Assembly (NCBI GenBank): GCA_965223855.1
Contig: CBDCXM010000009.1
Location: 1-64,000, forward strand
Length of the DNA: 64,000 bases
From: Candidatus Multivoradales bacterium
GTDB taxonomy: Bacteria; Acidobacteriota; Thermoanaerobaculia; Multivoradales; JAHEKO01
Reading direction: 5' to 3'
The notes below the pieces were generated by a model. It saw only the letters and a list, made by a program, of their open reading frames with translations, ran no database searches and was not told the origin of the DNA. The position numbers and the translations under genes are program-made. Within the stretch, counting starts at the first letter, position 1. Each line of letters starts with the position of its first letter. Positions 3,096 through 63,960 of this stretch are shown here, in pieces.

Positions 3096-3746
3096 TTACA
3101 AGAGATAGAGGCTGGGGAAGAGGAAGATCCACACCAGATCGACGAAGTGCCAGTAGAGACCTGCGACTTCGACCCGGTTCGTGAAGCGCTCCGGCTCGGT
3201 CTTCCACATCTTCGCTCCCGGCCCCCAGAGGTAGCCGTTGACGATCAGGCCGCCGATGACGTGCAGGGCATGAAGGCCCGTCATCGTGAAGTAGATCGCC
3301 ATGAAGTTGCCCGAGGACGGGAAGATGTCGTGCGAGAACTTCGAGCTGTACTCAATCGCCTTGATGACCATGAAACCGAGCGCACACAGGTTCGTCAGGC
3401 CCATCCACAGCTTGAACTTGCCGAAGTCCTTCAGCTTGAGCGCGACCCACGAGAGCACCATGGTCACACTGGAGAAGATCAGCACCAGCGTATTGAGGAA
3501 CGCCAGAGGCACGTTGAGCTGGTCGGACCAGATCATCGAGCCGTGATCGCCCCCGTGGCCGAGGTGTTCCGCCACTGCGTGCGGAATGGTCATGAAGTTC
3601 GGATCGCCGGTCCGCAGCAGGACGTAGGAGGAGAAGAGAGCTCCGAAGAGCATCACCTCCGAGGCGAGGAACAGCCAAACCCCGAGCTTGGCGTTGTAGA
3701 GGCCGGTGTCGGGCCTTGCCTTGACGTTGTACGGAATCTCGACCAT
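3096..3746 (-). CDS. ctaE: Heme-copper oxidase subunit III (short form)
   Basis: [30 protein letters not shown]; TGATG overlap with subunit I. Confidence 0.92.
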   Translation of the reverse strand: MVEIPYNVKARPDTGLYNAKLGVWLFLASEVMLFGALFSSYVLLRTGDPNFMTIPHAVAEHLGHGGDHGSMIWSDQLNVPLAFLNTLVLIFSSVTMVLSWVALKLKDFGKFKLWMGLTNLCALGFMVIKAIEYSSKFSHDIFPSSGNFMAIYFTMTGLHALHVIGGLIVNGYLWGPGAKMWKTEPERFTNRVEVAGLYWHFVDLVWIFLFPSLYLL

Positions 3747-5551: not shown

Positions 5552-5778
5552 CAACCCCTCCTGCCCGCTCCGGCGCCTCTCTGGCCACTCCGGAAAGCGA
5601 TCACTCTGGTCTTCGATTCCAGCGGAGTGTAACGGCCCGCCGGAGTGGTCGCAACCGCGCCCCGGGCGGCTTTCGCGGCTGCGCGAGCGGGGCCTGTGCA
5701 GGGTCTTGCGAGGCCTCTTGATAGCTTCGCCCGAGACCCGGCCACCACCTTGCCGACCTGCTTGCGGCAACCCAGACC

Positions 5779-7572
5779 ATGCCCTCCGAACCGGACTCCG
5801 ACAACTCCTCGACGACCCTCTCCGGCAGGCGGTTCGACTGGCGCAACGCCGTCCTCGTGATCGTCGCGCCGGTGGTCTTCTTCGCCCTGCTCGAAGGGAT
5901 CCTCGCGCTCGCCCGGGTCGAGCCGGTGCTCTACCCCGAGGACCCCTACGTCGGCTTCTCGTCACGGGTGCCGCTCTTCGTCCCGGCCGCCGAAGATCCC
6001 GCCGTGCTCGAGACGGCCGCCAACAAGCTGAGGCTGTTCAACCCCCAGCGATTTCCCAGGAAGAAACCTGCCGGCACCACCCGGATCTTCTGTGTCGGCG
6101 GCTCCACGACCTTCGGCAGGCCTTACGATCACGACACTTCCTTCTGCGGCTGGCTCGCGCGCCTGCTGCCCGCGATCGTCCCCGACCGGCAGTGGGAGGT
6201 GATCAACGCCGGCGGGGTCAGCTACGCCAGCTACCGCTCGGCGCTCGTGATGGAGGAACTCGCCGGTTACGAGCCCGACGTCTTCGTCATCTACTCGGGC
6301 CACAACGAATTCCTCGAAGAGCGCACCTACTCCGGCCTCATCGCGGTGCCGGAGCCGATCCGCGGCGTGGGCGCCGTCGCCAGCCGGACTCGTACCTGGG
6401 CGTTGCTGCGTTCCGTCCTCCTTCCCGAATCCCGGGCCGACGACGAGGACGACGTGCCGCTGATGGCCGCCGAGGTGACGACGAAGCTCGATGCCTCGGT
6501 CGGGCCCGACGCCTACGAACGCGACGACGCGCTCGCCGAGACGATCCTCGCTCACTACCGCTTCAACCTCGCGCGGATGGTCGACATCGCGCGCGCGGCG
6601 GGCGCGCAACCGATCCTGGTGACACCGGCTTCCAATCTGCGGGACTGCACGCCGTTCAAGAGTCAGTCGAGCCTTGCCGGGGAGGGCGAGGAGAGGGCTC
6701 GCTTCGAGCGCCGGCTGGGCGACGCCCGCGAGGCTCTGCGGCAAGGCGGTCACGAGGAAGCCCGCGCCGCGGCGACGGCGGCGGTCGCTCTCGACCCCCG
6801 ACATGCCGAAGCGCAGTACCGGCTGGGCGCCGCTCTCGACGCTCTCGGGGAGACGGCTGCCGCCCGGGAAGCGTTCACCCGTGCCAGAGACGAGGACGTC
6901 TGTCCGCTCCGCGCACCGACGCCGATCGCGCGGCTGGTGCGCGAGACGGCCGAACGACGGGAGGTCGAGCTGTTCGACTTCGCCGCCCGCACCGACGCGC
7001 TCGCGCGCGACGGAATCCCGGGTGCCGACCTCTTCCTCGACCACGTCCACCCGACCATCGACGCGCACCGCGAGCTCGCCGTCGGGCTGCTGTCGAGTCT
7101 ACGCTCCCTCGGCGTGTTGCCCACCTCGAGCCGCTGGGAGCCGGAACTGGTGGCCGGGGTCGCACGCGAAGTCGAGGCGGGACTCGACCGCGCCGCGCAC
7201 GGACGCGCGCTGCTCAACCTCTCGAAGGTGCTCGGCTGGGCCGGCAAGCTCGAGGACTCCGCCCATCTCGCCGCCCGCGCCGTCGAGCTCGCCCCGGAGG
7301 AGCCGGGAGCGCACTACCAGGCGGGCCTCACCGCCCAACTGACCGGCCGCCTCGAGGAAGCGATCGGCCACTACCGCCGGTCGCTCGACCTTGCCCCCAA
7401 CGCCGTGACGACGCACGGCAACCTGGCGGCCGCCCTCGAGGCGCGAGGGCAGCGGCTGCAGGCGATCCTCCACTACCGGCGCGCCCTCGCACTGCTGGGC
7501 GACGAGGAGAGCCCGTACAAGCAGCAGCTCACCGCCACCCTCGAGCGACTCGGGGCGACGCCTCGAGGTTGA
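5779..7572 (+). CDS. Membrane-anchored SGNH/GDSL-family hydrolase with TPR repeats
   Basis: N-terminal TM; GGSTT, GHNE and DHVHP blocks; TPR-like helical repeats. Confidence 0.8.
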   Translation: MPSEPDSDNSSTTLSGRRFDWRNAVLVIVAPVVFFALLEGILALARVEPVLYPEDPYVGFSSRVPLFVPAAEDPAVLETAANKLRLFNPQRFPRKKPAGTTRIFCVGGSTTFGRPYDHDTSFCGWLARLLPAIVPDRQWEVINAGGVSYASYRSALVMEELAGYEPDVFVIYSGHNEFLEERTYSGLIAVPEPIRGVGAVASRTRTWALLRSVLLPESRADDEDDVPLMAAEVTTKLDASVGPDAYERDDALAETILAHYRFNLARMVDIARAAGAQPILVTPASNLRDCTPFKSQSSLAGEGEERARFERRLGDAREALRQGGHEEARAAATAAVALDPRHAEAQYRLGAALDALGETAAAREAFTRARDEDVCPLRAPTPIARLVRETAERREVELFDFAARTDALARDGIPGADLFLDHVHPTIDAHRELAVGLLSSLRSLGVLPTSSRWEPELVAGVAREVEAGLDRAAHGRALLNLSKVLGWAGKLEDSAHLAARAVELAPEEPGAHYQAGLTAQLTGRLEEAIGHYRRSLDLAPNAVTTHGNLAAALEARGQRLQAILHYRRALALLGDEESPYKQQLTATLERLGATPRG

Positions 7573-7718
7573 GGGCAACGCTCGCGGCTCCACCGGGCCT
7601 GTGCACCGCTTCCTTGCCGCTCGAGGCCGCGCACCGCTACACTGAGCGATCAGTGTTCATTTCACCATGGCCCTCGCGCCCGCCCGAAGCGCGAGACTCC
7701 AGAAAGGGAACTCGAGTC

Positions 7719-10130
7719 ATGAAGACGTTGTGTAGCCGATCCCTCTGCGCCCTCGCCGTGCTCGCCCTGACGGCAGCCGTGCCGGCCTCCGCCGGTGGCT
7801 TCCTGACCGGCCCGCAGGAGGGCGATCCTCTCGACCTCGCCGTCGCCTACATCGAGGCGAACGCCGACGAGCTCGGTCTCTCCTACGAGGACCTGGCCGA
7901 CTTCGTCGTCTCCGACCTCTACGAGAGCCGCCACAACGGCGTCACTCACGTCTACCTCCAGCAGCGTCTCGTCGGTGTCGAGGTGGTCAACGGCATCCTC
8001 AACGTCAACGTGATGAGCGACGGCCGGATCCTGAGTCTCGGCAACCGCTTCATCGGCTCGCTCGCCGCCAAGGCGAACGTGCTTTCGCCGACCCTCCAGC
8101 CCGAGTCCGCGGTAGGTGCCGCTCTTGCCGATCGCGGCATCTCGATGGTCGCCGCACCGGCACTCCTCGAGGTGATCGGCGGGCCGGCGTCGGAGAGCCG
8201 CTTCGACGGTTCCGGCCTCGTGCAGGGCGACATCGGCGCGAAGCTCAACTACCTCCAGACCGTAGACGGGGCGCGACTCGTCTGGAGCGTCCGCTTCGAC
8301 CAGCTCCGCACGTCCGACATGTGGAACATCTTCGTCGACGCCGTCTCGGGCGAGGTGCTCGGGCGCCACAACTACACGGTGCACGAGCGCGGCGGTGTCT
8401 TCAGCGACGCGCGCCGCACCGCCGGCAAGCCGGGGCCGACGGCGACGGAAGGGGGCGGCTGCGGCGCGGGTGACTGCTACCACGTCTTCGCCACTCCGAA
8501 GGAGAGCCCCAACGACGGGCCGCGCACCTACGAGACCGATCCGGCCGACGCGACTGCGTCGCCCTTCGGCTGGCACGACACCAACGGTGCCACTGGTGCG
8601 GAGTTCACCGATACCCGCGGCAACAACGTCGAGGCGCAGACCGACCTCGACGCCAACAACAACTTCGGCGGCCCCGACGTCCGCTCCGAGGGTGGCGCCG
8701 GCCTCGATTTCGACGAGCCGCTCGACCTCAACCTCGGCCCCGAGACCTACCGGGAGTTCGCGGTCGCCAACCTCTTCTACTGGAACAACATCATCCACGA
8801 CATGATGTACCTCTACGGCTTCGACGAGGCGAGCGGCAACTTCCAGCAGAACAACTACGGCAACGGCGGCAACGCCGGCGACCCGGTCCAGGCCGACGCG
8901 CAGGACGGCTCCGGCTGCAACAACGCGAACTTCGGCACACCCTCCGACGGTGGAGACGGTCGGATGCAGATGTTCGTGTGGACCGGCGTGCCGAATGCGG
9001 CCTTCGAAGTTCTCTCGGGAACCGCGGCCGGCGAGTACTCCGCCGCCAAGGGGTGCTGGGGCGGTGAGCTGAGCCCGCCGACCGTGGCCGTGCCGGAGGA
9101 CGTCAACGACGGCACGGGCACGCCGACTCAGGGTTGCAACGCCCTGATCGGGTTCACCCCCGGCAACATCGCGCTCATCGATCGCGGCGGCTGCGAGTTC
9201 GGCGTCAAGGCGCAGAACGCCGAGACGGCTGGAGCGGTCGGGGCGGTGATCGTCAACGACGACCAGAACGGCCCCAACGCCATCATCAGCATGGGCGCCG
9301 GCGCGGTCGGCGACTTCGTGACGATTCCGGCGATCATGATCGGTGACATCGACGGTGCCACCGTGCGCTCGGACCTCGAAAGCTCGAGCATGCAGCCCGA
9401 CACCAGCGGGAATGTCGATCGCGACAGCGATCTCGACGCCGGCATCATCGCCCACGAGTACGGCCACGGCGTCTCGAACCGTCTCACCGGCGGGCCGACC
9501 AGCGTCGGCTGCCTGCAGCATCCTGAGCAGGCGGGCGAGGGTTGGAGCGACTGGTTGACGCTGGCGCTCTTCCCGGATCCCTCCGACACGGCGACGACCG
9601 CGCGTGGCGTCGGTACCTACTCGGTCTTCCAGCCGTCCGACGGAGCGGGGATCCGCAACTTCCCGTACACCACCGACCTGGGCGTCAACCCTCAGACCTA
9701 CGAGGACATCGGCGCCACCAACATCCCGCACGGCGTGGGTGAGATCTGGGCGGCGATGCTGTGGGAGGTCTACTGGAACCTCGTCGACGATCTGGGCTTC
9801 GACCCCGATCTCTACAACGGTACCGGCGGCAACAACCTCGCGATTCAGCTGGTCAACGACGGCATGAAGCTGCAGCCGTGTGTCCCGACCTTCGTGCAGG
9901 CCCGCGACGCCATCCTCGCCGCCGATACGGCGCTGACCGGAGGCGCCAACCAGTGCGCGATCTGGACCGGCTTCGCCAAGCGTGGTCTCGGTTTCTCGGC
10001 CACCGCCGGTGGGACCGGCGTCGGTGACGAGACCGAGGCGTTCGACCTGCCCTCGACCTGCGGCACGGAAATCTTCACCGACGGATTCGAGAGCGGTGAC
10101 ACGTCCGCCTGGAGTAACACCATCCCCTAG
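7719..10130 (+). CDS. M36 (fungalysin) family metallopeptidase with propeptide and PA domain
   Basis: Signal peptide, HVYLQQ propeptide, HEYGH and GEGWSD, PA insert (IALIDRGGCEFGVKAQNA); the 1474-aa ORF call over-extends the 5' end. Confidence 0.9.
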   Translation: MKTLCSRSLCALAVLALTAAVPASAGGFLTGPQEGDPLDLAVAYIEANADELGLSYEDLADFVVSDLYESRHNGVTHVYLQQRLVGVEVVNGILNVNVMSDGRILSLGNRFIGSLAAKANVLSPTLQPESAVGAALADRGISMVAAPALLEVIGGPASESRFDGSGLVQGDIGAKLNYLQTVDGARLVWSVRFDQLRTSDMWNIFVDAVSGEVLGRHNYTVHERGGVFSDARRTAGKPGPTATEGGGCGAGDCYHVFATPKESPNDGPRTYETDPADATASPFGWHDTNGATGAEFTDTRGNNVEAQTDLDANNNFGGPDVRSEGGAGLDFDEPLDLNLGPETYREFAVANLFYWNNIIHDMMYLYGFDEASGNFQQNNYGNGGNAGDPVQADAQDGSGCNNANFGTPSDGGDGRMQMFVWTGVPNAAFEVLSGTAAGEYSAAKGCWGGELSPPTVAVPEDVNDGTGTPTQGCNALIGFTPGNIALIDRGGCEFGVKAQNAETAGAVGAVIVNDDQNGPNAIISMGAGAVGDFVTIPAIMIGDIDGATVRSDLESSSMQPDTSGNVDRDSDLDAGIIAHEYGHGVSNRLTGGPTSVGCLQHPEQAGEGWSDWLTLALFPDPSDTATTARGVGTYSVFQPSDGAGIRNFPYTTDLGVNPQTYEDIGATNIPHGVGEIWAAMLWEVYWNLVDDLGFDPDLYNGTGGNNLAIQLVNDGMKLQPCVPTFVQARDAILAADTALTGGANQCAIWTGFAKRGLGFSATAGGTGVGDETEAFDLPSTCGTEIFTDGFESGDTSAWSNTIP
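10071..10130 (+). other. C-terminal tag IFTDGFESGDTSAWSNTIP (copy 1)
   Basis: 15/19 aa identical to the C-terminus of the unrelated M28 peptidase. Confidence 0.75.
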
Positions 10131-51619: not shown

Positions 51620-52617
51620 ATGAAACTCGGCTTCCCCCTCTTCCCCGACAGCGCGTCGACCCTGGCACCCCAGGTCGATGCGATCTACTTCTTCGGGCTG
51701 ACGATCGCGGCGGTGTTCTCGCTGCTGATCGCCGCGGCGATCTTCTACCTCGCCCTGAAGTACCGCCGCTCGCCCGACAACCCTGTCGGCCAGCGCGAGC
51801 GCGCCGGCCTGCTGCTCGAGATCACCTGGTCGGTGATCCCGTTCGCCATCATGCTGGTGATGTTCGGTTGGGGCGCCAAGGTGTTCTTCACCGCGATCCG
51901 ACCGCCCGCCGACGCCACCGAGTACTACGTCACCGGCAAGCAGTGGATGTGGAAGTTCCAGCACCCCGAGGGGCGCCGCGAGATCAACACGCTGCACGTG
52001 CCGGTCGGTCAGCCGATCAAGCTGATCATGACTTCCGAAGACGTCATTCACTCCTTCTTCGTCCCGGCCTTCCGCTCCAAGATGGACGTACTGCCCGGCC
52101 GCTACACGAGCTTCTGGTTCGAGGCGACCGAGCCCGGCACCTACGACCTCTTCTGCGCCGAGTACTGCGGCGCCGAGCACTCCCTGATGGGCGGCTCGAT
52201 CGTCGTCATGGAGCCGGCCGAGTACGAGGCGTGGCTCGCCGACGACAGCGGTGACACACCGCGGCTCGCCTCCGGGGCGGATCTCTTCACCGCCAAGGCG
52301 TGCGGCACCTGCCATCGGCCGGACACCAACCTCCAGGGGCCGGATCTCACCGGCATCTTCGGCACCGAAGTCGCGCTCGCGAACGGCGACACCGTGGAGG
52401 TCGACGAGGACTACCTGCGCGAGTCGATCCTCGAGCCGGCGGAGAAGATCGTGCTGGGCTACCAGCCGCTGATGCCGACCTACAAGGGGCAGCTCAGCGA
52501 GGAAGAGCTGATGCAGCTCATCATCTACATCAAGTCCCTCGCGGACGAGCAGGAGGGTGACGCCCGGGCCGAAAGCGACGACGCCGGCGCCGAGGCGGTC
52601 ACCGACGAGGCGGCACC

Positions 52618-52621
<4 letters not shown>
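51620..52621 (+). CDS. ctaC: Cytochrome caa3 oxidase subunit II with fused cytochrome c
   Basis: [28 protein letters not shown]. Confidence 0.95.
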
Positions 52622-54263
<1,642 letters not shown>

Positions 54264-54267
<4 letters not shown>

Positions 54268-54947
54268 GCGTCGCGGCGCAAGGGAAGGCAGGCGGCAAGA
54301 AGAGCCGTGCGTGGGGGCTCGCCCACCACTTCGAGAGCTTCGCCCAGCAGCAGGAGGCGTCGTTCTTCGGCATGTGGCTGTTCCTGGTGCAGGAGATCCT
54401 CTTCTTCGGCGGCCTCTTCACCGCCTACATCGTCTACCGCACCTCGCACCCGGAGGCGTTCGCCCTCGGCAGCCACGAGCTCGACATCCAGCTCGGCGCG
54501 ATCAACACCGCGGTGCTGATCGGCTCGTCGCTCACGATGGCGCTCGCGGTGTGGGCGGCGCAGGTGGGGAAGAACAAGGCGATCGTCCTCTTCATCATCC
54601 TCACCATCCTGCTCGGCGGGGTGTTCCTCGGCATCAAGACCGTGGAGTACAGCCACAAGTGGCACGAGCACCACGTCCCCGGACCCAACTTCGAGTGGGA
54701 CGGCCCGGAAGCGCCTAACGTCCACATGTTCTTCAACCTCTACTTCGCGATGACGGGGCTCCACGCCCTCCACATGGTCGTCGGCATGGTGATTCTCGTC
54801 GTCATCGCGATCTGGGCGTGGCGCGGAGCGTTCACCCCCGAGAACCACAACCTGGTCGAGGGGATGGGGCTCTACTGGCACTTCGTCGACATCGTGTGGA
54901 TCTTCCTCTTCCCGCTGCTCTACCTGCTGGGAAGGAGCGGCGCATGA
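54264..54947 (+). CDS. ctaE: Cytochrome c oxidase subunit III
   Basis: [25 protein letters not shown]. Confidence 0.93.
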
Positions 54948-55243
54948 GCGGCCACGGCGACCACCACGTCACCGGCATCGGCGCCTACGTCGGCGTCTTC
55001 CTCGCCCTGATGGTGCTGACCGCGGTCACCGTATGGGTCGCGTTCCTCGATCTCGGCCCGCTCAACGACCTCGTCGCCATGGCGATCGCCTTCACCAAGG
55101 CGACGCTGGTGGTGCTGATCTTCATGCACGTGCTGCATGCCAGCCGGGTGACCAAGATCACCGTCGTCGCCGGCTTCCTGTGGCTGGCGATCCTCTTCGG
55201 CATCACGCTGACCGACTACTTCAGCCGCGGCTTCCTGCAGTAG
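54944..55243 (+). CDS. ctaF: Cytochrome caa3 oxidase subunit IV
   Basis: YVGVFLALMVLT, KATLVVLIFMH, DYFSR. Confidence 0.88.
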   Translation: MSGHGDHHVTGIGAYVGVFLALMVLTAVTVWVAFLDLGPLNDLVAMAIAFTKATLVVLIFMHVLHASRVTKITVVAGFLWLAILFGITLTDYFSRGFLQ

Positions 55244-55244
55244 C

Positions 55245-55314
55245 TGTCGTCCCTCGGGTTGCCGCGTCATCCGTGTCGTCCCTCGGGTTGCCCTCCGGCA
55301 ACCCGTCGGGGGAC
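55245..55314. repeat. 19-bp direct repeat plus hairpin between convergent genes
   Basis: TGTCGTCCCTCGGGTTGCC at 55245 and 55274; CGGGTTGCC-ctcc-GGCAACCCG stem. Confidence 0.6.
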
Positions 55315-55334
55315 TGAGCCGACGCCGAGCTTCC

Positions 55335-55745
55335 CTACTGTCGGAGCAGTTCGACCAGCTCGGCGAGTTCGTGAGTCCAGCCGTCGACGTTCGACTGCCG
55401 GTCCTGCGGCCGCTCGAAGCCCGATTCGCGCAACTCGAGCACTGTGCCGCCGCCCGGGCGCTCACTCAGCCTGAACTCGACGAGCGTCGACGGCCCGTCG
55501 CCGACCGGAGTGTCCGCCTCACGCGACCAGCGCCACGCGACGTAGCGAGGCGGCTCGAACGCCTCGACCCTCACGGCGTAGCGCCCGTGCTCGGCCCAAA
55601 CGAACTCCCCGCTCACCCCTTCCCCCATGTCGAACGCCGCCGTGTCCGGAAACCAGCTCGCCAGCTCCCTCCCATCCGTCAACGCCCTCCACACCCGCTC
55701 CACCGAAGCATCGAACTCCATCCGCCTCTCGATCGCCGGCGTCAT
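55335..55745 (-). CDS. SRPBCC (AHSA1/START-like) domain protein
   Basis: VERVWRALTD, LASWF, TLVEFRL, ESGF, GW. Confidence 0.88.
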   Translation of the reverse strand: MTPAIERRMEFDASVERVWRALTDGRELASWFPDTAAFDMGEGVSGEFVWAEHGRYAVRVEAFEPPRYVAWRWSREADTPVGDGPSTLVEFRLSERPGGGTVLELRESGFERPQDRQSNVDGWTHELAELVELLRQ

Positions 55746-56056
55746 CCGTCCGTCTCCTCTCCGAGATGCCGCCTGAGCCTCTCCAGCCGTCGATCCCACG
55801 CCGCCGCATAAGGCTCGAGCCACTCCTCCACCACCTGCAGCGGCCGCGCCTCCAGCCGGTGCAGCTTCTCCCTTCCCCGCCACTCCACCGTCACCAGCCC
55901 GGCCGCCTCGAGCACCGAAAGATGCCGCGTCACCGCCTGGCGACTCATCGGAATCGGCTCGGCAAGCTCATGGAGTGTCAGCGGTTCCTCCTCTCGAAGG
56001 CGAGCCATGAGAGCTCTGCGAGTGGGTTCCGCCAAAGCCTGGAAGATCGCTTCCAC
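55742..56056 (-). CDS. ArsR/SmtB family transcriptional regulator
   Basis: FQALAEPTRR, SRQAVTRHLSVLEAAGLV; GTG start inferred. Confidence 0.9.
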   Translation of the reverse strand: MEAIFQALAEPTRRALMARLREEEPLTLHELAEPIPMSRQAVTRHLSVLEAAGLVTVEWRGREKLHRLEARPLQVVEEWLEPYAAAWDRRLERLRRHLGEETDG

Positions 56057-56064
56057 TGCAGGCG

Positions 56065-56094
56065 AGGATATGCAACCTATGTGTTGCATGTCAA
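56065..56094 (-). promoter_or_regulatory. Sigma70 promoter TTGACA-N18-TATCCT overlapped by palindromic operator ATGCAAC-N6-GTTGCAT
   Basis: -35 at 56094-56089, -10 at 56070-56065, palindrome at 56070-56089. Confidence 0.7.
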
Positions 56095-56334: not shown

Positions 56335-56946
56335 TCAGGCGCGGTTGCGGTAGAGGTCCGGATCAACGATCGAGGCCATCGCCCGAACATCCAGATCCCG
56401 CCCGACGAACTCCGCCAGCTTCCTGGCGTGCCCCTCCGGATCCGCGATCACTTCGCGATACGGGAAGAAGAGCACCTCCATGTGCGGCGAGTGCTTCAGG
56501 TGGTAGTTCGCCTTCCACAGATCCGCCTCGAAGAACTCCTTCATCGAGGCGTCGTCGCTCCCCGACTCTTCGCCCCGCCGCTCCAGCATCTTCGCCTGCG
56601 ACGCCAACACCTCGTCGATCTCGCGCCGCATGAAGACCACCTTGTAGTTGTGGTTCGACGGGAGATGCCGCAGGAGATAGGAGATGATCTTGATCGCCTT
56701 GCCTCGCCCCTCGCGGAGCCACTCCTTGTCGACCTCCTTCGCGAGATCGAGCACCCGGTCGTCCTCGTAGTACCCCTTCGGATTGTCCTCGTCCGCGGTG
56801 CGATTGCCGTCGGTGACGGGGGTCATCCCACCCGCCTCGAGCATCTTCATCGCCATCGACGTGCCAGAGCGCGGCAGCCCGGAGACGACGACGATCGGCT
56901 CGCCGTAGAGACGGCGACGGAACCACTTTGCGAGCTTGCTCGGCAC
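56335..56946 (-). CDS. Sulfotransferase-family (PAPS-binding P-loop) protein
   Basis: SGLPRSGTSM, DNPKGYYE, FMRR...VLASQ; start inferred. Confidence 0.82.
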   Translation of the reverse strand: MPSKLAKWFRRRLYGEPIVVVSGLPRSGTSMAMKMLEAGGMTPVTDGNRTADEDNPKGYYEDDRVLDLAKEVDKEWLREGRGKAIKIISYLLRHLPSNHNYKVVFMRREIDEVLASQAKMLERRGEESGSDDASMKEFFEADLWKANYHLKHSPHMEVLFFPYREVIADPEGHARKLAEFVGRDLDVRAMASIVDPDLYRNRA

Positions 56947-57137
56947 GTTGGAGAACCTCTCGGTAGGGGATGTGCGGGGATGGACGCGCCCGATGATGGG
57001 GCGGCTTTGGACGCGGCGATAGGATAGTATGCAGCGCGTTCGGGAGCCAGTCCCACGCCGCGCCGGCATGGGGCCTCGCAGCCCGAAACCACTCCGGCAC
57101 TGCCCCTCACTACCCCAGCAGACAGCCAATCCTCTTC

Positions 57138-59357
57138 ATGGTCGGACAAGGAATCTCTGTGCAGCGACGCATCGCGCAAGCGGTCGCTCGGACGACGCTC
57201 GTGGCGGCGGCCCTGGCCTTCGCCGGGCCGGCAGCGGCCTACGTCGGGCCCGGCGCCGGGTTCGCGATGGCGACCTCGATCGGGGTCGTCTTCTTCACCG
57301 TCATCATCGCGGTGCTCGCGGTGCTCACCTGGCCGTTCCGCATGGTGTGGCGGCTCATCCGCCGACCGGCGAAGCCCAACGCACGAGTGCGACGCCTCAT
57401 TTTCCTCGGCCTCGACGGCCAGGACCCGAGGCTGACCGAGAAGTGGATGGCCGAGGGCAAGCTCCCCAACTTCTCGCGCCTCGCCGAACTCGGCTGCTAC
57501 CACCGCCTGCAGTCGACCTACCCGTCGATCTCGCCGGTCGCCTGGTCTTCGTTCGCCACCGGCGTGCAGCCGGCCAAGCACAATATCTTCGACTTCCTGA
57601 GCCGCGACCGCGGAAGCTACCTGCCGCTCCTCTCCTCGACGTCGATCGAGACGATCGAGCGCCGCGGAGCCGCGCTTCTCAGGAAGCTGCGCCTCGGCAA
57701 GTACCGCTTCCCGGTGGAGAAGGCGCAGATCCGGATGCTTCGCAAGGCGAAGCCCTACTGGACGATTCTCGGTGAGCACTACATCTGGTCGACCGTCCTC
57801 CGCGTGCCGATCACCTTCCCGCCCGATCGTTTCTACGGCGCCCAGCTCGGGGCGATGTCGATCCCCGACCTGCTGGGCACCCAGGGGACCTTCGTCCTCT
57901 TCACCAACCGCCCGGCGGAAGGTGAGTTCAAGGAGGGGGGCATCCGCGTCGCTCTCGAAGACTCGGGCAATCCGAACGGGGGAGATCGTTTCGAGGCGAA
58001 GCTGGAAGGCCCCGAGAACGCCTTCCTCGACGGCGAGCCGCCGCTCGAGCTGCCGGTGGCGATCACGCTCGATCGCTCCGCCGGCAAAGCGACGGTCGAG
58101 ATCGGCGACGAGGAGATGGTGCTCGGAGTCGGCGAGCTCTCCGACTGGGTGAGCCTCGAGTTCCCCGCCGCGCCGACCGTCAAGGTGTCGGCGCTGGCGC
58201 GCATCCAGATCACCGAAATGGACGAGTTCGTCTCGCTCTACGTCACGCCGCTCAACATCGCCCCCGAGAATCCGGCGATGCCGATCTCGCACCCCGACTA
58301 CTACGCAAACTACCTGGCGAAGAAGATCGGTCCCTACTCGACCCTCGGCCTCGCCGAGGACACCTGGGCGCTCAACGAGGACGTGACCGACGACGCGACC
58401 TTCCTCCAGCAGAGCTACGACATCGACAAGGAGCGCGAGGAGATGTTCTTCGCCGCGCTCGATCGACTCAACAAGGGCTCGCTCGTGTGCGTCTTCGACG
58501 GCACCGACCGGATCCAGCACATGTTCTGGCGCTACATGGAGGAGGGGCATCCAGCCGCCGAAGGGCGCGATCCGGGCGAGCATGCCGACGCGATCGAGGA
58601 CCTCTACCGACACAACGACGCCCTCCTTGGCCGGACGATGAAGAAGCTGCGCAAGGGCGACCTGCTGTTCGTGCTCTCCGACCACGGCTTCACTTCGTTC
58701 CGCCGCGGCGTCAACGTCAACGCCTGGCTGCTCGAGCACGGCTACCTGCATCTCAAGGAAGGCGCCGACGGCTCGAGCGAGTGGCTCGCCGACGTCGACT
58801 GGTCCCGCACCCGCGCCTACAGCCTGGGTCTCGCCGGGATGTATCTGAACATCGAAGGCCGCGAGGCGCATGGCATCGTCAAACCGGGAGCCGAGGCGCA
58901 GGCGCTCAAGGACGAGCTGGTCGAGAAGCTCAGTGGGCTCGAGGACTCGGAGAAAGCCGACGTCGGCATCACCGAGCTGTTCGATACCTCCAAGCTCTAC
59001 TCCGGCCCTTATCTCGGCAATGCTCCGGACCTCCTCTTCGGCTTCAACGGCGGCTACCGCACCTCCTGGGACTGCGCCACCGGCGTCGTCTCCGGGCCGG
59101 TGTTCGACGACAACACCAAGGCGTGGAGCGGCGATCACTGCGTCGACCCCCGCCAGGTGCCGGGCGTGATGTTCTGCAACTTCCCCATCGACGACGAAGA
59201 TCCCTACCTGATGGACATGGCGCCAACCGCGCTGTCGCTCTTCGGCATCGACCCGCCGGCCCACATGGACGGCAAGTCGCTGTTCTCGAAGGAGCGGGAG
59301 TTCGATCCCGCGCGCGGCGCGGAGACGAAGCCGGTTGCCGAAGGAGCCGCCTCGTGA
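57138..59357 (+). CDS. AlkP-superfamily (NPP/type I phosphodiesterase-like) protein with signal peptide, YVGPGAG motif and TM
   Basis: GLDG, PSISPVAW, DRIQH, SDHG, WSGDH. Confidence 0.85.
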   Translation: MVGQGISVQRRIAQAVARTTLVAAALAFAGPAAAYVGPGAGFAMATSIGVVFFTVIIAVLAVLTWPFRMVWRLIRRPAKPNARVRRLIFLGLDGQDPRLTEKWMAEGKLPNFSRLAELGCYHRLQSTYPSISPVAWSSFATGVQPAKHNIFDFLSRDRGSYLPLLSSTSIETIERRGAALLRKLRLGKYRFPVEKAQIRMLRKAKPYWTILGEHYIWSTVLRVPITFPPDRFYGAQLGAMSIPDLLGTQGTFVLFTNRPAEGEFKEGGIRVALEDSGNPNGGDRFEAKLEGPENAFLDGEPPLELPVAITLDRSAGKATVEIGDEEMVLGVGELSDWVSLEFPAAPTVKVSALARIQITEMDEFVSLYVTPLNIAPENPAMPISHPDYYANYLAKKIGPYSTLGLAEDTWALNEDVTDDATFLQQSYDIDKEREEMFFAALDRLNKGSLVCVFDGTDRIQHMFWRYMEEGHPAAEGRDPGEHADAIEDLYRHNDALLGRTMKKLRKGDLLFVLSDHGFTSFRRGVNVNAWLLEHGYLHLKEGADGSSEWLADVDWSRTRAYSLGLAGMYLNIEGREAHGIVKPGAEAQALKDELVEKLSGLEDSEKADVGITELFDTSKLYSGPYLGNAPDLLFGFNGGYRTSWDCATGVVSGPVFDDNTKAWSGDHCVDPRQVPGVMFCNFPIDDEDPYLMDMAPTALSLFGIDPPAHMDGKSLFSKEREFDPARGAETKPVAEGAAS

Positions 59358-61306
59358 CCCGCCGCATCGGCATCGCGGCGCTCCTGCTGGCGGCCCTCGT
59401 CGGCCTCGGCGGCTGCAGCGACGGTCATCGGGTCACCGGCAAGCAGGTGGTCGTCATCGGCGTCGACGGCATGGACTGGAACTACACCCAGCAGATGATC
59501 GCCGACGGTCGGATGCCGACCTTCGCGCGCCTCGAGCGCGAGGGCTCGGCGGCGCCGCTCGGCACGTCGATCCCGCCGCTCTCGCCGATCGCCTGGTCGA
59601 ACTTCATGACCGGCACCGACTCCGGCCACCACGGCATCTTCGACTTCCTCCACCGCGACCCGGAGAGCTACTTCCCCACTTCTTCGCTTGCCAAGTCGGA
59701 GCAGGGCGAGCCAGGCCCGTGCCTCGGCAAGTACCGGCTGCCGGCCGACGGCACCTTCGAGATGCTCCGCCGCGGCGACCCGTTCTGGAAGCCGCTCGAG
59801 GAGACCGGCGTCGAGTCCTGGATCCTCAGAATGCCGGTCAACTTCCCGCCGTCGGGCTACGCCACCCGCGAGCTCTCCGGCATGGGCACACCCGACCTCA
59901 CCGGGTCGCTGGGCGAGTTCTCGTTCTTCACCTCGGCGCTCTTCTACGACGATGTCGGCTCGGGCGGCAAGGTCTACCCGCTCGACCTGTGGGAGGACCG
60001 CGCCGAGGGCGAGCTCGTCGGTCCGGAGAACATCTACCTGTGCGAGCCGGAGAAGACCCGGGTGCCGCTCGTCGTCTACTTCGACCCCGCCGAACCGGTC
60101 GCCAAGGTCGTCATCGGCGAGGAGGAGACGATCCTCAACGTCGGTGAATGGAGCGACTGGGTGCCGATCTCCTTCGAGCTGGCACCGACGCAGTCGCTCA
60201 ACGCCAAGGCGCGGCTCTACCTGCGCGCCGTCCGGCCCGAGGTCGAGCTCTACGTGACGCCGCTCCAGATCGACCCGATGGCGCCGATCATGCCGATCTC
60301 GACCCCGGCCGACTTCGCCGCCGAGCTCGCCGAGGCGACCGGCGGCTACTACACCCAGGGGATGCCGGAGGACACCAAGACCGCGACCGAGGAGCTGTTC
60401 TCGATCGACGAGTTCCTCGCCCAGGCGCGGATCGCCGGCATCGAGCTCGAAGAGCAGTTCGACTACCTGCTCGACGAGTTCGAGGACGGGTTGCTCTTCT
60501 ACTACTTCGGCAACCTCGACCAGGTGTCGCACATCATGTTCGGCATGACCGATCCGGAGCATCCGATCTACGACGAGGTCACCGCCGCCAAGTACGCGGG
60601 CGTCGTGCCGGAGCTCTACGAGCGCGCCGACCGCATGGTCGAGCTGGCGATGGAAAAGCTCCCCGAGGCGACGATCGTCGTGATGTCGGACCACGGCTTC
60701 TCGAGCTGGCGCCGGTCGATGAATCTCAACTCGTGGCTGCGCGACGAGGGGTACCTGGTCCTCAAGGACCCGTCGCTCACCAAGGACCCCGGCCTCTTCC
60801 GCAACGTCGACTGGGCGCGAACGCGCGCCTACGGAGTCGGCTTCAACGGCCTTTACATCAACGAGCGGGGGCGGGAGAGCCAGGGGATCGTCGACCCCGA
60901 AGACGCCGACGCGCTCCTGGCCGAGATCGGCGACAAGCTGCTGGCGACCCTCGACCCCAAGTCCGGCACCCCGGCCGTGACCCAGGTCTACCCGGCGGCC
61001 GAGACGTTCCAGGACGGCCCGGGCCTGCTCGTAGGCCCCGACATGATCGTCGGCTACGCGCTCGGGACCAAGGGCTCCTCCGACGGCGCTCTCGGCGAGA
61101 TCGAGCCGGAGGTCTTCAGCGACAACACGAGCGCCTGGACCGGCGACCACAGCATGGACCACGACGCGGTGCCGGGCATTCTCTTCACCAACAAACCGCT
61201 GTCGAAGCCGGCCCCGACCCTGATCGACCTCGCTGCCGCCGTGGTGGCTGAGTTCGGGCTCGAGCGGTTTCCGGTCGACGTCGACGGCGGCGCGGCACAG
61301 CAGTAG
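59354..61306 (+). CDS. AlkP-superfamily (NPP-like) paralogue, predicted lipoprotein
   Basis: GTGA overlap, lipobox LGGC, GVDG, PPLSPIAW, DQVSH, SDHG, WTGDH. Confidence 0.85.
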   Translation: MTRRIGIAALLLAALVGLGGCSDGHRVTGKQVVVIGVDGMDWNYTQQMIADGRMPTFARLEREGSAAPLGTSIPPLSPIAWSNFMTGTDSGHHGIFDFLHRDPESYFPTSSLAKSEQGEPGPCLGKYRLPADGTFEMLRRGDPFWKPLEETGVESWILRMPVNFPPSGYATRELSGMGTPDLTGSLGEFSFFTSALFYDDVGSGGKVYPLDLWEDRAEGELVGPENIYLCEPEKTRVPLVVYFDPAEPVAKVVIGEEETILNVGEWSDWVPISFELAPTQSLNAKARLYLRAVRPEVELYVTPLQIDPMAPIMPISTPADFAAELAEATGGYYTQGMPEDTKTATEELFSIDEFLAQARIAGIELEEQFDYLLDEFEDGLLFYYFGNLDQVSHIMFGMTDPEHPIYDEVTAAKYAGVVPELYERADRMVELAMEKLPEATIVVMSDHGFSSWRRSMNLNSWLRDEGYLVLKDPSLTKDPGLFRNVDWARTRAYGVGFNGLYINERGRESQGIVDPEDADALLAEIGDKLLATLDPKSGTPAVTQVYPAAETFQDGPGLLVGPDMIVGYALGTKGSSDGALGEIEPEVFSDNTSAWTGDHSMDHDAVPGILFTNKPLSKPAPTLIDLAAAVVAEFGLERFPVDVDGGAAQQ

Positions 61307-61315
61307 GAGGCAGTC

Positions 61316-61519
61316 ATGTTCGGAGGCGGCAAGATCAAACTCGACAAGGAGCTGATGGAGAAGGTGACGCGCATCGCCGCGATCGCCGGCTACTCCTCAC
61401 CGACCGAGTTCATCACTCACGCGCTCGAGAAGGAGCTGGCGAAGATCGAGGGTGAGGGCGAGGCTCTCTCCGAGGAAGAGATCAAGAAGCGGCTCCAGGG
61501 GCTCGGCTACATCTCGTAG
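61316..61519 (+). CDS. 67-aa protein with ribbon-helix-helix-like N-half and LxxLGY C-terminal motif
   Basis: RBS AGGAGG; KIKLDKELMEKV...GYSSPTEFITHALEKEL; EEEIKKRLQGLGYIS. Confidence 0.78.
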   Translation: MFGGGKIKLDKELMEKVTRIAAIAGYSSPTEFITHALEKELAKIEGEGEALSEEEIKKRLQGLGYIS

Positions 61520-61555
61520 GCGGTCGGCACCGGAACTCGGCGACACGACGACACC

Positions 61556-62374
61556 ATGGAAGCGATCAACGCACTGCTGCGCTCGGCCCTCGATGCCTTC
61601 TGGGGTCTGTTGGGCGGCCTGCCCGACTGGGTCGGGCTGACCGTGCTCGCCTTCCTGGTGACGCTGCTGATCCTGCCGGTCATCCGCTGGACCTTCAACT
61701 ACGACCTCGCGGAGCGCTTCAAGCGGGGTATCTACTCGGGCCTCTTCGAGATTCGCCTCTTCAACGACCGCCTCGGCGCGACCTTCCGCGGCCTGTTCGA
61801 TGTGCTCCGCAACACCGCCGCCTACATGGGGGCGTGGCTGCTGCCGCTCGTCGTCATGTCGATCCCGATGCTGCCGGTCTTCGCCCATCTGCACTTCCAC
61901 TACGGCTACGACGGGCTCGAGCCGGGCGCCTCGACGGTGCTGCGCGCCGAGTTCGCCGAAGACCGCGAGACGGGAAAGCCGGTCGCCTCGATCGACGTGC
62001 CGGAAGGGGTGTCGGTCGACACCCCCGCACTGTGGGTCGCGGCCCAGCGCGAGCTGAGCTGGCGGCTGTCGGCCGAGACCCCGGGCGAGTACGAGGTGCG
62101 GCTCTCGATCGACGGCGAGAGTTATACCAAGAGCGTCGTCGTCTCCGACCAGAGCACCCGGCGCTCGCCCCTGCGGCCACGCCAAAGCTTCTTCGACCAG
62201 CTGATCTACCCCGCCGAGCCGCCGCTGCCCGCCGGCAGCCCGCTCGAGCGCATCACCGTCGAGTACCCGGAGAAGTCGAGCGTCCTGATGGTGCCGACCT
62301 GGTGCTGGATCCTGATCCTGCTCTCGATCCCGTTCTTCCTGCTCCTCAAGGGCAGGTTCGGGGTCGAGGTCTGA
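61556..62374 (+). CDS. Three-TM membrane protein with inserted beta domain, DUF106/EMC3-like layout
   Basis: Amphipathic helix, TM1, helical loop, LLPLVVMSIP TM2, beta-rich domain, terminal TM WILILLSIPFFLLLKGRFGV. Confidence 0.7.
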   Translation: MEAINALLRSALDAFWGLLGGLPDWVGLTVLAFLVTLLILPVIRWTFNYDLAERFKRGIYSGLFEIRLFNDRLGATFRGLFDVLRNTAAYMGAWLLPLVVMSIPMLPVFAHLHFHYGYDGLEPGASTVLRAEFAEDRETGKPVASIDVPEGVSVDTPALWVAAQRELSWRLSAETPGEYEVRLSIDGESYTKSVVVSDQSTRRSPLRPRQSFFDQLIYPAEPPLPAGSPLERITVEYPEKSSVLMVPTWCWILILLSIPFFLLLKGRFGVEV

Positions 62375-62418: not shown

Positions 62419-63960
62419 ATGCCGTTCGAGCCCGCGGAACGCTTCAACGTCGCCCACTACTTTCTCGACGCTCGCGTCGAGGAGGGGCACGGTGACCGAG
62501 CGGCCGTGACCCTCGGCGAGGAGACCCTGAGCTACGCTCAGGTGCAGTCGCTCGCCAACCGCTACGCCAACGCGCTGCGGCAGCTCGATGTCAGGCCGCG
62601 GGAGCGGGTGATGATCGCGCTCCCGGACGGCTTCGAGTGGGTCGGAGCGTTCTTCGGGGTCCTCAAGAGCGGGGCGGTCGTCGTGATGGTCAACCCGGGC
62701 CTCAAGGAGGACAACCTCACCCGGCTCTTCGACTACGTCAACCCACGCTGGGTGATTCTCGACGGCGAGGTCGCCGGGCGATTCACCGCCGCCGCCGGGG
62801 AGGCCCTCGACCCACCGACCCTCCTCGATGTCGGCCAGGGTGTGCTGGCGGAAGCTCTGGAGACCGCCCCGGAAGCGTTCGAGAACTACCCGACTCACCG
62901 GGACGACCCGGCGATCTGGCTCTTTTCGGGGGGCACCACCGGGCTGCCCAAGGGGGTCGTCCAGAGCCACACCTCGTTCGCCAACACGACCGAGCTCTAC
63001 GCCAAGGGAGCGGTCGGCTACGGGCCCGACGACGTCACGCTGTCCGTGCCGAAGCTCTACTTCGGCTACGCCACCGGGTCGAACCTGCTCTTCCCGTTCG
63101 CCGTCGGCGCTCGTGTGGTGCTCTTCCCCGAGCATCCGACCGCCGAGCGGCTGTTCGAGCTGATCGAGCGCCACCGCCCGACGATCCTCGTCAACGTGCC
63201 GACGATGGTGAACCAGATGGTCTCTCACGAAGCGGCCGATCACAGCGACCTGTCCTCGCTCCGGTTCGCCACATCGGCCGGTGAGGCGCTGCCGATCCCA
63301 CTCTACGAGGCGTGGAAGGAGCGCTTCGGGGTCGAACTGCTGGACGGTCTCGGCACCGCCGAGATGTGGCACATCTTCGTCACCAATCGCCCCGACGACG
63401 TGCGGCCGGGCACCCTGGGCCGGGCGGTCGAGGGGTTCGAGATCGACGTGCGCGACGACGACGGGCGCACGGTTCCGCCGGGCGAGCCGGGCAAGATGTG
63501 GGTGCGCGGCAACTCGCGCGCCATCGGCTACTGGCGCAACGCCCGGCGCAATCACGAGGCGTTCCACGGCGACTGGTTCGTCGGCGGCGACCTCGTGTCC
63601 CGCGACGCCGACGGCTACATCACCTACTGCGGGCGCGGCGACGACGTGCTCAAGGTCGGCGGCAAGTGGCTGGCGCCCCAGGAGGTCGAGAGCTGCCTGC
63701 TGCGCCATGAGGCGGTTCGCGAGTGTGCCGTCGTCGGTGTGGAGAACGCCGAGGGGCTCACCAAGCCGGTCGCCTTCGTCCGCTGCACAGCGTCGCGAGA
63801 CGATCTCCCGGACGAGCTCAAGCAGCACGTTCTCGACCGGCTCGACGCCTACAAGCACCCGCGGCAGGTGGTCGTGCTGGAGGAGTTCCCGCGCACCCAC
63901 CTGGGCAAGGTCGATCGCGGAGCGCTCAAGAGCATGGCCCGAGAGTCGCTCGGCGACTGA
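62419..63960 (+). CDS. Benzoate-CoA ligase family AMP-dependent ligase
   Basis: FNVAHYFLD, WLFSGGTTGLPKG, KLYFGY, SAGEALP, DGLGTAE. Confidence 0.88.
   Translation: MPFEPAERFNVAHYFLDARVEEGHGDRAAVTLGEETLSYAQVQSLANRYANALRQLDVRPRERVMIALPDGFEWVGAFFGVLKSGAVVVMVNPGLKEDNLTRLFDYVNPRWVILDGEVAGRFTAAAGEALDPPTLLDVGQGVLAEALETAPEAFENYPTHRDDPAIWLFSGGTTGLPKGVVQSHTSFANTTELYAKGAVGYGPDDVTLSVPKLYFGYATGSNLLFPFAVGARVVLFPEHPTAERLFELIERHRPTILVNVPTMVNQMVSHEAADHSDLSSLRFATSAGEALPIPLYEAWKERFGVELLDGLGTAEMWHIFVTNRPDDVRPGTLGRAVEGFEIDVRDDDGRTVPPGEPGKMWVRGNSRAIGYWRNARRNHEAFHGDWFVGGDLVSRDADGYITYCGRGDDVLKVGGKWLAPQEVESCLLRHEAVRECAVVGVENAEGLTKPVAFVRCTASRDDLPDELKQHVLDRLDAYKHPRQVVVLEEFPRTHLGKVDRGALKSMARESLGD

Follow-up and report, generated by a model that had tools for sequence, protein, structure and literature searches.

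Here, we describe a five-gene cassette in the genome of an acidobacterium, Candidatus Multivoradales bacterium, whose members co-occur across bacterial phyla. We tentatively favor, at somewhat less than even confidence, the reading that it is a conserved membrane cassette working on or with activated sulfate, i.e., adenosine 5'-phosphosulfate (APS) or 3'-phosphoadenosine 5'-phosphosulfate (PAPS), and that a sulfotransferase is its usual but not its obligatory partner. The analyzed stretch of DNA, hereafter the window, covers the initial 64 kb of a contig of 3.2 Mb in a genome of 4.5 Mb. The gene of a putative sulfotransferase (SULT) is divergent from an operon that encodes two proteins of the alkaline phosphatase (AlkP) superfamily, AlkP1 and AlkP2, a small protein with a ribbon-helix-helix (RHH)-like domain, RHH67, and a membrane protein, MEM272 (Table 1). 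AlkP2 starts with a GTG that overlaps the stop codon of AlkP1. An open reading frame (ORF) check of positions 56335-62374 recovered all five genes named by an earlier reading made from the letters alone (the sequence-only reading), and gene order and strands agreed with its description.

The five-gene arrangement is conserved far beyond chance. According to a pattern scan with one genome per species, at least 552 genomes encode RHH67, and we analyzed the 80 best loci, which were chosen as the most query-like and not at random. Their labels comprise Thermoanaerobaculia, Holophagales, Vicinamibacteria, Gemmatimonadota, Myxococcota, Binatia, Schekmanbacteria, and one 'Gammaproteobacteria' metagenome-assembled genome (MAG), which upholds the claim that the genes occur together in several Acidobacteriota classes and beyond the phylum. 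MEM272 follows RHH67 in 77 of the 80 loci; two misses are due to contig ends and one, in locus L089, is a real absence. AlkP1 was found in 73 loci, with six misses at contig ends and a further absence in L089, and AlkP2 in 68; in 11 loci AlkP1 is not accompanied by AlkP2. We detected SULT in 63 loci, whereas 13 offered no room for it and four lacked it despite sufficient room. In 47 loci it is divergent at a distance of less than 700 bp from AlkP1, in 12 it is divergent across a gap of 887-1316 bp that holds the inserted gene(s), and in three it is located elsewhere. All five genomes without SULT beside AlkP1 that were searched genome-wide encode it (E 1e-91 to 1e-106), four of them away from the cassette and the fifth, L089, next to RHH67. 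Clustering of the ORFs of the 80 loci revealed no further family in more than 20 of them.

Among the 41 nearest genomes, 25 (including the unpublished G005) encode RHH67, MEM272, SULT, and the AlkP pair, 13 have neither RHH67 nor SULT nor a full MEM272, and three incomplete ones (G013, G016, and G021; 61-86% complete) hold SULT and AlkP pieces on short contigs or at contig ends. In these relatives, comparison of gene neighborhoods thus found the genes present together or absent together. Linkage was also evident in an even sample of the phylum (101 genomes, all at least 90% complete, the unpublished G092 included), in which the 29 genomes that encode RHH67 are exactly those that encode MEM272, with the two genes adjacent to each other. 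SULT (E <= 1e-30) was detected in 27 of the 101 genomes, 21 of them among the 29 with the cassette; these numbers derive from the scoring of 27 first-look candidates per genome, so that some copies may be missed. The order AlkP (one to three copies)-RHH67-MEM272 was kept in all eight loci fetched from this sample, with SULT directly following MEM272 on the same strand in two of them (L208, L209). Because this order persists while the position of SULT varies, we regard AlkP1-(AlkP2)-RHH67-MEM272 as the core of the cassette and SULT as a frequent partner. Related genomes are not independent of each other, and the counts therefore describe a pattern and not a statistical test.

The strongest functional clue is that a tie to APS or PAPS is seen repeatedly, although both the gene order and the genes involved vary. 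Three genomes of the phylum sample (G072, G089, and G073) have a close RHH67 copy but no SULT. In G072 (locus L202), genes for CysD (PAPS_reduct domain) and CysN (GTP_EFTU type) are located directly upstream on the same strand, with a sulfatase-like gene downstream, and in G089 (locus L204), an APS kinase gene (CysC) is found upstream of the cassette among extra AlkP paralogues; neither CysD/CysN nor an APS kinase is encoded beside the cassette of G073. Sulfate-activation genes thus accompany the cassette in two of the eight phylum-sample loci, and they are situated within ~9 kb of it in nine of the 80 loci (L055, L083, L084, L090, L095, L105, L111, L118, and L122), most of which encode a fused PUA/ATP-sulfurylase/APS-kinase. 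No such gene was found near the cassette in the window or in any of 18 loci of close relatives, and the APS kinase gene of the window genome is 1.9 Mb away. Linkage to SULT or to PAPS-synthesis genes irrespective of gene order lends weight to the general idea of the sequence-only reading that the system is concerned with sulfation. Locus L204 also encodes, between the extra AlkP paralogues and the cassette (3181-5379), a class-V aminotransferase (NifS-like) fused to AIR-synthase-related (SelD-like) domains.

Both AlkP proteins keep all residues expected of the two-metal site of nucleotide pyrophosphatase/phosphodiesterase (NPP)-type enzymes. They are 38% identical to each other and match Pfam family PF01663 (Phosphodiest; 96 bits for AlkP1 and 113 bits for AlkP2 at a cut-off of 23), each in two stretches around an insert. 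Residues D93, S/T132, D454, H461, D515, H516, D666, and H667 of AlkP1 are invariant in 28 of 28 sequences, with Ser at the nucleophile position in 21 and Thr in seven. The nucleophile of AlkP2 is Ser in all 25 sequences, and S77, D38, D446, H447, and H599 are invariant. The nucleophile motif of both proteins is S/T-P-x-A-W, without the C/S-x-P-x-R (CxPxR) signature that marks formylglycine sulfatases. The previously described active site, a Ser nucleophile (SPxAW) without CxPxR in both proteins, stands, with Thr in place of this Ser in some homologues of AlkP1. The large beta insert noted at the same time is also apparent in the structural model of AlkP1 (mean predicted local distance difference test score, pLDDT, 76; helices 8-27 and 39-75), which has a beta-rich insert of ~120 residues with strands between residues 253 and 369. 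The best Foldseek matches of this model were ENPP1 (8e-10), Xanthomonas NPP (1e-9), and the phosphonoacetate hydrolase PhnA (1e-8), and further matches included SPAP, PafA, ENPP6, and ENPP7, while sequence similarity to solved members reached only ~E 1e-4. The nucleophile aligns with a Thr of Xanthomonas NPP that we take to be the nucleophile of that enzyme. AlkP1 and AlkP2 thus share with the NPP branch (Xanthomonas NPP 2gsn/7n1s, ENPP1, PhnA) the PF01663 domain, the two-metal site, the overall fold, and the Ser/Thr nucleophile after a conserved Pro-containing turn. They differ from it by the beta-rich insert, by their predicted locations, and by being fixed partners of RHH67 and MEM272.

The two paralogues probably work on opposite faces of the inner membrane. 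The N-terminus of AlkP1 consists, in 28 of 28 sequences, of a signal-like segment ending in A-x-A, an invariant Y-[IV]-G-P-G-A-G turn, and a transmembrane helix. The 22-23 residues that separate this helix from the GLDG motif contain 6-10 (median 8) Lys/Arg and at most one Asp/Glu in the 28 sequences, and the positive-inside rule would accordingly place the catalytic domain on the cytoplasmic side. We thus infer that AlkP1 is a cytoplasm-facing enzyme held at the membrane by its N-terminal hairpin. A general sorting signal was considered for the turn and rejected, as the pattern Y-[IVL]-G-P-G-[AS]-G occurs once in the whole genome. AlkP2 begins with a signal-like sequence in 25 of 25 homologues, 17 of which have a strict lipobox, and Cys21 is conserved in at least 90%; it is accordingly predicted to be exported. 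The third AlkP paralogue of G072 starts without any signal.

MEM272 is related to MJ0480, a YidC-like protein of archaea, but is bacterial and bears an additional immunoglobulin (Ig)-like domain. In a search of solved chains, a profile of 30 MEM272 sequences matched MJ0480 (5c8j) with E 8.4e-11 over residues 8-121, i.e., across the first transmembrane helix (TM1), the cytoplasmic hairpin, and TM2, in agreement with the 'EMC3-like' three-helix membrane protein of the sequence-only reading. The model (pLDDT 93.6; helices 24-46, 49-68, 73-93, 95-116, strands 126-235, helix 248-264) has three transmembrane helices, a cytoplasmic helical hairpin between TM1 and TM2, and a beta-sandwich of ~110 residues before the last helix, for which Foldseek returned Ig-like matches only. 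Comparison of the membrane core with VIA-align gave chain 7tut_8 (Z 7.4, 132 residues over 18-272), which is not above the helical background. MEM272 of the window falls below the Pfam cut-off for PF01956 (EMC3_TMCO1) and gave no match to it; four of the 30 homologues touch this family weakly (best E 0.002), and JGI labels some as DUF106. The family is large, with 1194 clusters at 50% identity (E <= 1e-30). MEM272 shares TM1, the cytoplasmic hairpin, TM2, and TM3 with Ylp1/MJ0480 (DUF106), EMC3/TMCO1, and, more distantly, YidC. In contrast to archaeal Ylp1 and to EMC3, it is bacterial, has the Ig-like domain in its outside loop, and is encoded in an enzyme operon, with a normal YidC encoded elsewhere in the genome. 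DUF106 is described as archaeal and eukaryotic in the relevant passages of one paper (PMC5868721), and the consulted passages of bioRxiv 10.1101/2020.12.20.422553 mention no bacterial members.

That SULT is a PAPS-type sulfotransferase, as had been proposed, agrees with its match to Pfam family Sulfotransfer_3 (43 bits, cut-off 27), and additionally to Sulfotransfer_1, and with its conserved motifs. Across 23 homologues only approximately residues 62-264 of the ORF are conserved, so that the true start is probably internal; the family profile matches positions 56338-56979. The PRSGTS loop and the RRDLxEVLASQ stretch (R-x-x-x-E-V-L-A-S) are invariant or nearly so in 24 sequences, and we take them to be the PAPS 5'-phosphosulfate loop and the 3'-phosphate motif, respectively. 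SULT has these motifs and its Pfam membership in common with Sulfotransfer_3 enzymes including TPST1/2. The sequences nearest to its profile among solved structures were TPST2 and TPST1 (E 9e-5 to 7e-3), but SULT is only ~205 aa long, its similarity to TPST is confined to little beyond the PAPS loop, and a second aligned stretch of TPST2 was not significant.

RHH67 matches RHH_1 (17.9 bits, cut-off 20.5) and PSK_trans_fac only weakly, and its 2305 homologues are 36-118 aa long (67-91% identity among those listed). Its sequence ends in an acidic linker followed by L-x-G-L-G-Y-I-S, hereafter the LGY tail. All 10 sequences compared agree at G62, L63, G64, Y65, I66, and S67, and the tail is kept in variants that are only 31-44% identical. 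A six-frame genome scan for L-x-x-L-G-Y-[ILVMF] gave 54 matches, 31 of which are located within two residues of the stop in long frames, all after an acidic run. These 31 frames are RHH67, 29 ORFs of the Sulfatase family, and one of the Phosphodiest family. The tailed Sulfatase-family ORFs are probably not sulfatases, because a pattern search found Thr-x-P-x-His in place of Cys-x-P-x-Arg in nine of the 30 tailed ORFs and many of the 30 have a lipoprotein-like Cys after a signal-like N-terminus. The motif is internal in 14 long frames, of which four with hydrophobic or non-acidic context were dropped and 10 were fetched. Nine of the latter encode a Sulfatase or Phosphodiest domain followed by tetratricopeptide repeats (TPR), with the motif exactly at the junction, which suggests a link between the tail and TPR scaffolds; the tenth is a vWA protein. 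In all, about 40 AlkP-superfamily enzymes of the genome have this peptide.

The tail is equally common in five related genomes without the cassette or SULT, where 23 of 30 sampled sulfatase-like loci have it. Near cassettes elsewhere it is also found on further AlkP-type enzymes, and APS kinase (L204:1152-1751), CysD (L202:16608-17405), and two fused ATP-sulfurylase/APS-kinases (L084:2445-4187 and L122:2330-4063) encoded beside cassettes end in LGY-type tails. Judged by this distribution, the LGY tail is a portable C-terminal element of AlkP-superfamily enzymes and, near cassettes, of cytoplasmic sulfate-pathway proteins. A solved example was not found, as none of 61 sulfatase chains retrieved by C-terminal profile matches aligns over the LGY positions. 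In a Myxococcota-labelled locus (L106:894-4870), a second, divergent RHH-like gene with the end ...RLKNLGYL is located directly upstream of AlkP1. This locus further contains a sulfatase-like gene with the tail and a multi-pass membrane ORF of 784 aa; its SULT is on another contig. Apparent fusions of AlkP and RHH67 are not genuine where they were read. Of the 13 longer proteins found, six were read, including four of the five with a PF01663 listing, and all six result from frameshifted read-through of the neighboring AlkP gene, with the stretch between the parts out of frame; the corresponding database entries P0241-P0251 are such read-throughs in metagenome assemblies.

The sequence-only reading had likened the 67-aa protein to DltX, with Tyr as a possible carrier in a relay of sulfuryl (or phosphoryl) groups. 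Short conserved C-terminal peptides are known from DltX and from the EEVD ends of Hsp70/Hsp90, which are bound by TPR domains, and the RHH67 tail shares with these a short conserved C-terminal peptide and, in our wording, an essential aromatic residue. Unlike DltX, however, RHH67 has no hydrophobic or membrane segment and is apparently soluble, and its tail is common to soluble and exported enzymes, which speaks against a DltX-type membrane peptide. Since the tail is present on dozens of enzymes, including those of genomes without SULT, and precedes TPR repeats in nine ORFs, a docking tag fits better than a dedicated Tyr carrier, a covalent shuttle, or a target that requires SULT. The carrier and the sulfuryl relay through tyrosines are thus not supported, given how widespread the tail is without cassette and SULT. 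A role of SULT as general modifier of LGY tails is weakened by the same observation.

How might the cassette work? Topology signals, paralogy, and gene linkage are the basis of the following model. On the cytoplasmic side, PAPS would be drawn on via SULT and/or the membrane-tethered AlkP1. RHH67 would be an adaptor and not a group carrier, its LGY tail docking on an AlkP-type domain or a shared receptor, and in some genomes the PAPS-making enzymes might also be held to the complex via their LGY tails. In the membrane, MEM272 could insert or hold the AlkP1 hairpin, or offer the intermediate a hydrophilic path across the bilayer. The outside step would fall to the exported paralogue AlkP2, so that AlkP1 and AlkP2 would handle one type of phosphate- or sulfate-linked group, each at its own face of the inner membrane. 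A more specific version, which we regard as a long shot, treats the tail as a docking code. Tailed PAPS-making enzymes and an RHH67 dimer would assemble on the cytoplasmic AlkP1, which, with APS or PAPS, would load a sulfate-containing group (sulfo- or phosphosulfate-linked) on a membrane carrier; this carrier would cross via the hydrophilic DUF106-type groove, and AlkP2 would deliver the group to an envelope acceptor. If true, it would be the first bacterial route carrying PAPS-derived sulfate to the periplasmic side and the first known job of a bacterial DUF106 protein.

Several observations weigh against the proposed role in activated sulfate metabolism. Enzymes of the NPP type are known as phosphodiester hydrolases, and the sequences would be just as compatible with plain hydrolysis of 3'-phosphoadenosine 5'-phosphate (PAP), APS, PAPS, or a lipid head group. 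Eight of the 29 cassette-bearing genomes of the phylum sample lack the SULT family at E 1e-30 among the 27 candidates scored per genome, and six genomes carry SULT without the cassette. An LGY tail in cis is missing from the closest outgroup AlkP proteins (L036-L040), hence there is no obvious need for one in AlkP domains of this type. As the outgroup is tail-less, we also rejected the idea that RHH67 replaces a tail lost from AlkP1 and AlkP2. Finally, L089 (Schekmanbacteria-labelled MAG, 5300-10100) combines SULT and RHH67 without AlkP and MEM272. The composition of this single locus suggests that the cassette consists of two sub-modules, SULT-RHH67 and AlkP1-MEM272. Judged by their translations, the neighboring ORFs of L089 comprise a GT2 glycosyltransferase, which is translationally coupled to RHH67, together with a PH-like membrane protein, a fusion of CcoS-like and epimerase parts, and a glycerophosphodiesterase whose fold is not that of AlkP.

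The alternative that survives best, although we consider it rather unlikely, is an ordinary phosphodiesterase operon, in which AlkP1 and AlkP2 hydrolyze nucleotides or phosphodiesters, for example in phosphate scavenging or in the turnover of PAP, APS, or PAPS, while RHH67 is a repressor, MEM272 an insertase for the AlkP1 anchor, and SULT a metabolic neighbor. The NPP-type active site and fold agree with such an operon, but scavenging does not explain the repeated, order-independent linkage to SULT and PAPS-synthesis genes. A repressor would be in line with the RHH-like sequence and with the JGI names of RHH67 homologues (CopG/Arc/MetJ regulators), yet the most conserved part of RHH67 is the tail and not the DNA-reading strand. 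Although the RHH strand is nearly invariant, 48 SULT-AlkP1 intergenic regions revealed no shared operator beyond shuffles in a search for exact words of 7-10 bases and for 10- and 12-mers with 1-2 mismatches, which does not cover degenerate or distant sites; the best word occurred in 14 of the 48 regions compared with 9-12 in shuffles. This result gives no support for DNA binding by RHH67, but does not exclude it. Regarding MEM272, the AlkP1 anchor with its signal-like segment, very short outside loop, helix, and basic tail resembles substrates of YidC-type insertases, whereas the YidC that the genome already has speaks against a dedicated insertase. Oxa1-family substrates are characterized by few helices and small translocated regions in the pertinent section of PMC5868721.

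Remodelling of membrane lipids is improbable, but accounts for some of the same features. AlkP1 would remove phospho-head groups in the inner leaflet, SULT would sulfate the exposed hydroxyl, MEM272 would scramble the product to the outer leaflet, and AlkP2 would act there. ENPP2, ENPP6, and ENPP7 are NPP-type lipid phosphodiesterases, two of which (ENPP6, ENPP7) are among the fold matches of AlkP1, and the N-terminal hairpin predicts that AlkP1 is membrane-tethered. In L089, the glycerophosphodiesterase-like ORF, as read from its translation, occupies the usual place of AlkP, and YidC is described as a lipid scramblase in the abstract of PMC11997395. Against this, no lipid-synthesis gene is recurrent, since no other family reaches more than 20 of the 80 loci, and L089 is a single locus. 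That SULT is a protein-tyrosine sulfotransferase of the tail Tyr, in RHH67 and perhaps also in tailed enzymes that have yet to be exported, is very unlikely: TPST2 and TPST1 are the best solved matches of its profile, an acidic run stands just before the invariant Gly-Tyr in the tails, and SULT and RHH67 occur together in L089 without AlkP genes, but the TPST match, the tailed enzymes of SULT-free genomes, and the cassette genomes without the SULT family, as described above, all argue against it.

The favored role in activated sulfate metabolism would place known protein families in a new context. AlkP-superfamily transferases such as EptA/MCR-1, LtaS, and OpgB work at the periplasmic side, where they modify the envelope using donors that are lipid-linked or membrane-bound, and RaxST is a bacterial protein-tyrosine sulfotransferase. 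The former share with AlkP1 and AlkP2 the superfamily, the Ser/Thr nucleophile, the membrane site, and the idea of inside loading and outside transfer, but their Pfam family is Sulfatase and their membrane domains are multi-pass; to our knowledge, none has a DUF106 protein, a sulfotransferase, or an RHH protein as partner. In our literature search (main texts), we came across no account of the cassette, of the LGY tail, or of any bacterial DUF106 protein. While its parts come from known superfamilies, the combination matches no characterized pathway, and we regard the cassette as a putative new system of unproven function. PAPS does not leave the cytoplasm, and sulfation of the bacterial envelope outside the cytoplasm is therefore an open problem. 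With paralogous enzymes predicted on both membrane faces and tied to the PAPS supply, the cassette makes this question testable. It also places a DUF106/EMC3-type protein of a large family in bacteria with a defined genetic partner, and thus offers a simple system for roles of such proteins besides general insertion. The LGY tail, in turn, marks hundreds of mis-named 'sulfatases' with Thr in place of formylglycine and ties them to the cassette by a shared peptide.

Table 1. Features of the cassette and its surroundings in the window, and LGY-containing ORFs of genome G000
Feature	Position	Strand	Description
SULT	ORF 56335-57129; conserved part 56335..56979	-	Predicted cytoplasmic PAPS-type sulfotransferase, ~205-215 aa
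Divergent SULT/AlkP1 intergenic region	56980..57137	.	Between the two start regions
AlkP1	57138-59357	+	739 aa; PF01663
AlkP1 N-terminal membrane hairpin	57138..57392	+	Signal-like segment, AxA, Y-[IV]-G-P-G-A-G turn, transmembrane helix, basic stretch
AlkP1 catalytic domain, NPP-like with beta-rich insert	57393..59357	+	PF01663; predicted cytoplasm-facing
AlkP2	59354-61306	+	650 aa; PF01663; predicted exported; lipoprotein in most genomes
RHH67	61316-61519	+	67 aa, C-terminus ...RLQGLGYIS
RHH67 ribbon-helix-helix-like domain	61316..61471	+	Weak RHH_1 and PSK_trans_fac matches
RHH67 acidic 'LGY' tail	61472..61519	+	SEEEIKKRLQGLGYIS, then stop
MEM272	61556-62374	+	272 aa; DUF106/Ylp1-type, Oxa1 superfamily; Ig-like beta-sandwich between TM2 and TM3
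Benzoate-CoA ligase (aryl-CoA-ligase) family gene	62419-63960		TIGR02262, 458 bits; downstream of MEM272
LGY-tailed AlkP-superfamily ORFs, genome G000	L127-L156, e.g. C2:87212-88789, C9:301915-303510, C9:1168542-1172792		30 ORFs
Sulfatase/Phosphodiest-LGY-TPR ORFs, genome G000	L158-L166, e.g. C8:379158-381224, C9:2832998-2835259		Nine ORFs

Genes flanking the cassette are less conserved. The benzoate-CoA ligase family gene is found 3' of the cassette in just three of the 80 related loci and is therefore not part of it. A scan of the locus for promoters and terminators yielded nothing useful, and no promoter-like site was called in the intergenic region between SULT and AlkP1. Upstream, positions 51620-56089 of the window hold the genes of cytochrome c oxidase subunits II, I, and III in an operon with a fourth, small ORF, followed by a divergent ArsR-type regulator gene that overlaps an AHSA1/SRPBCC gene. 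The oxidase operon and the ArsR/AHSA1 pair are syntenic with the cassette in close relatives only.

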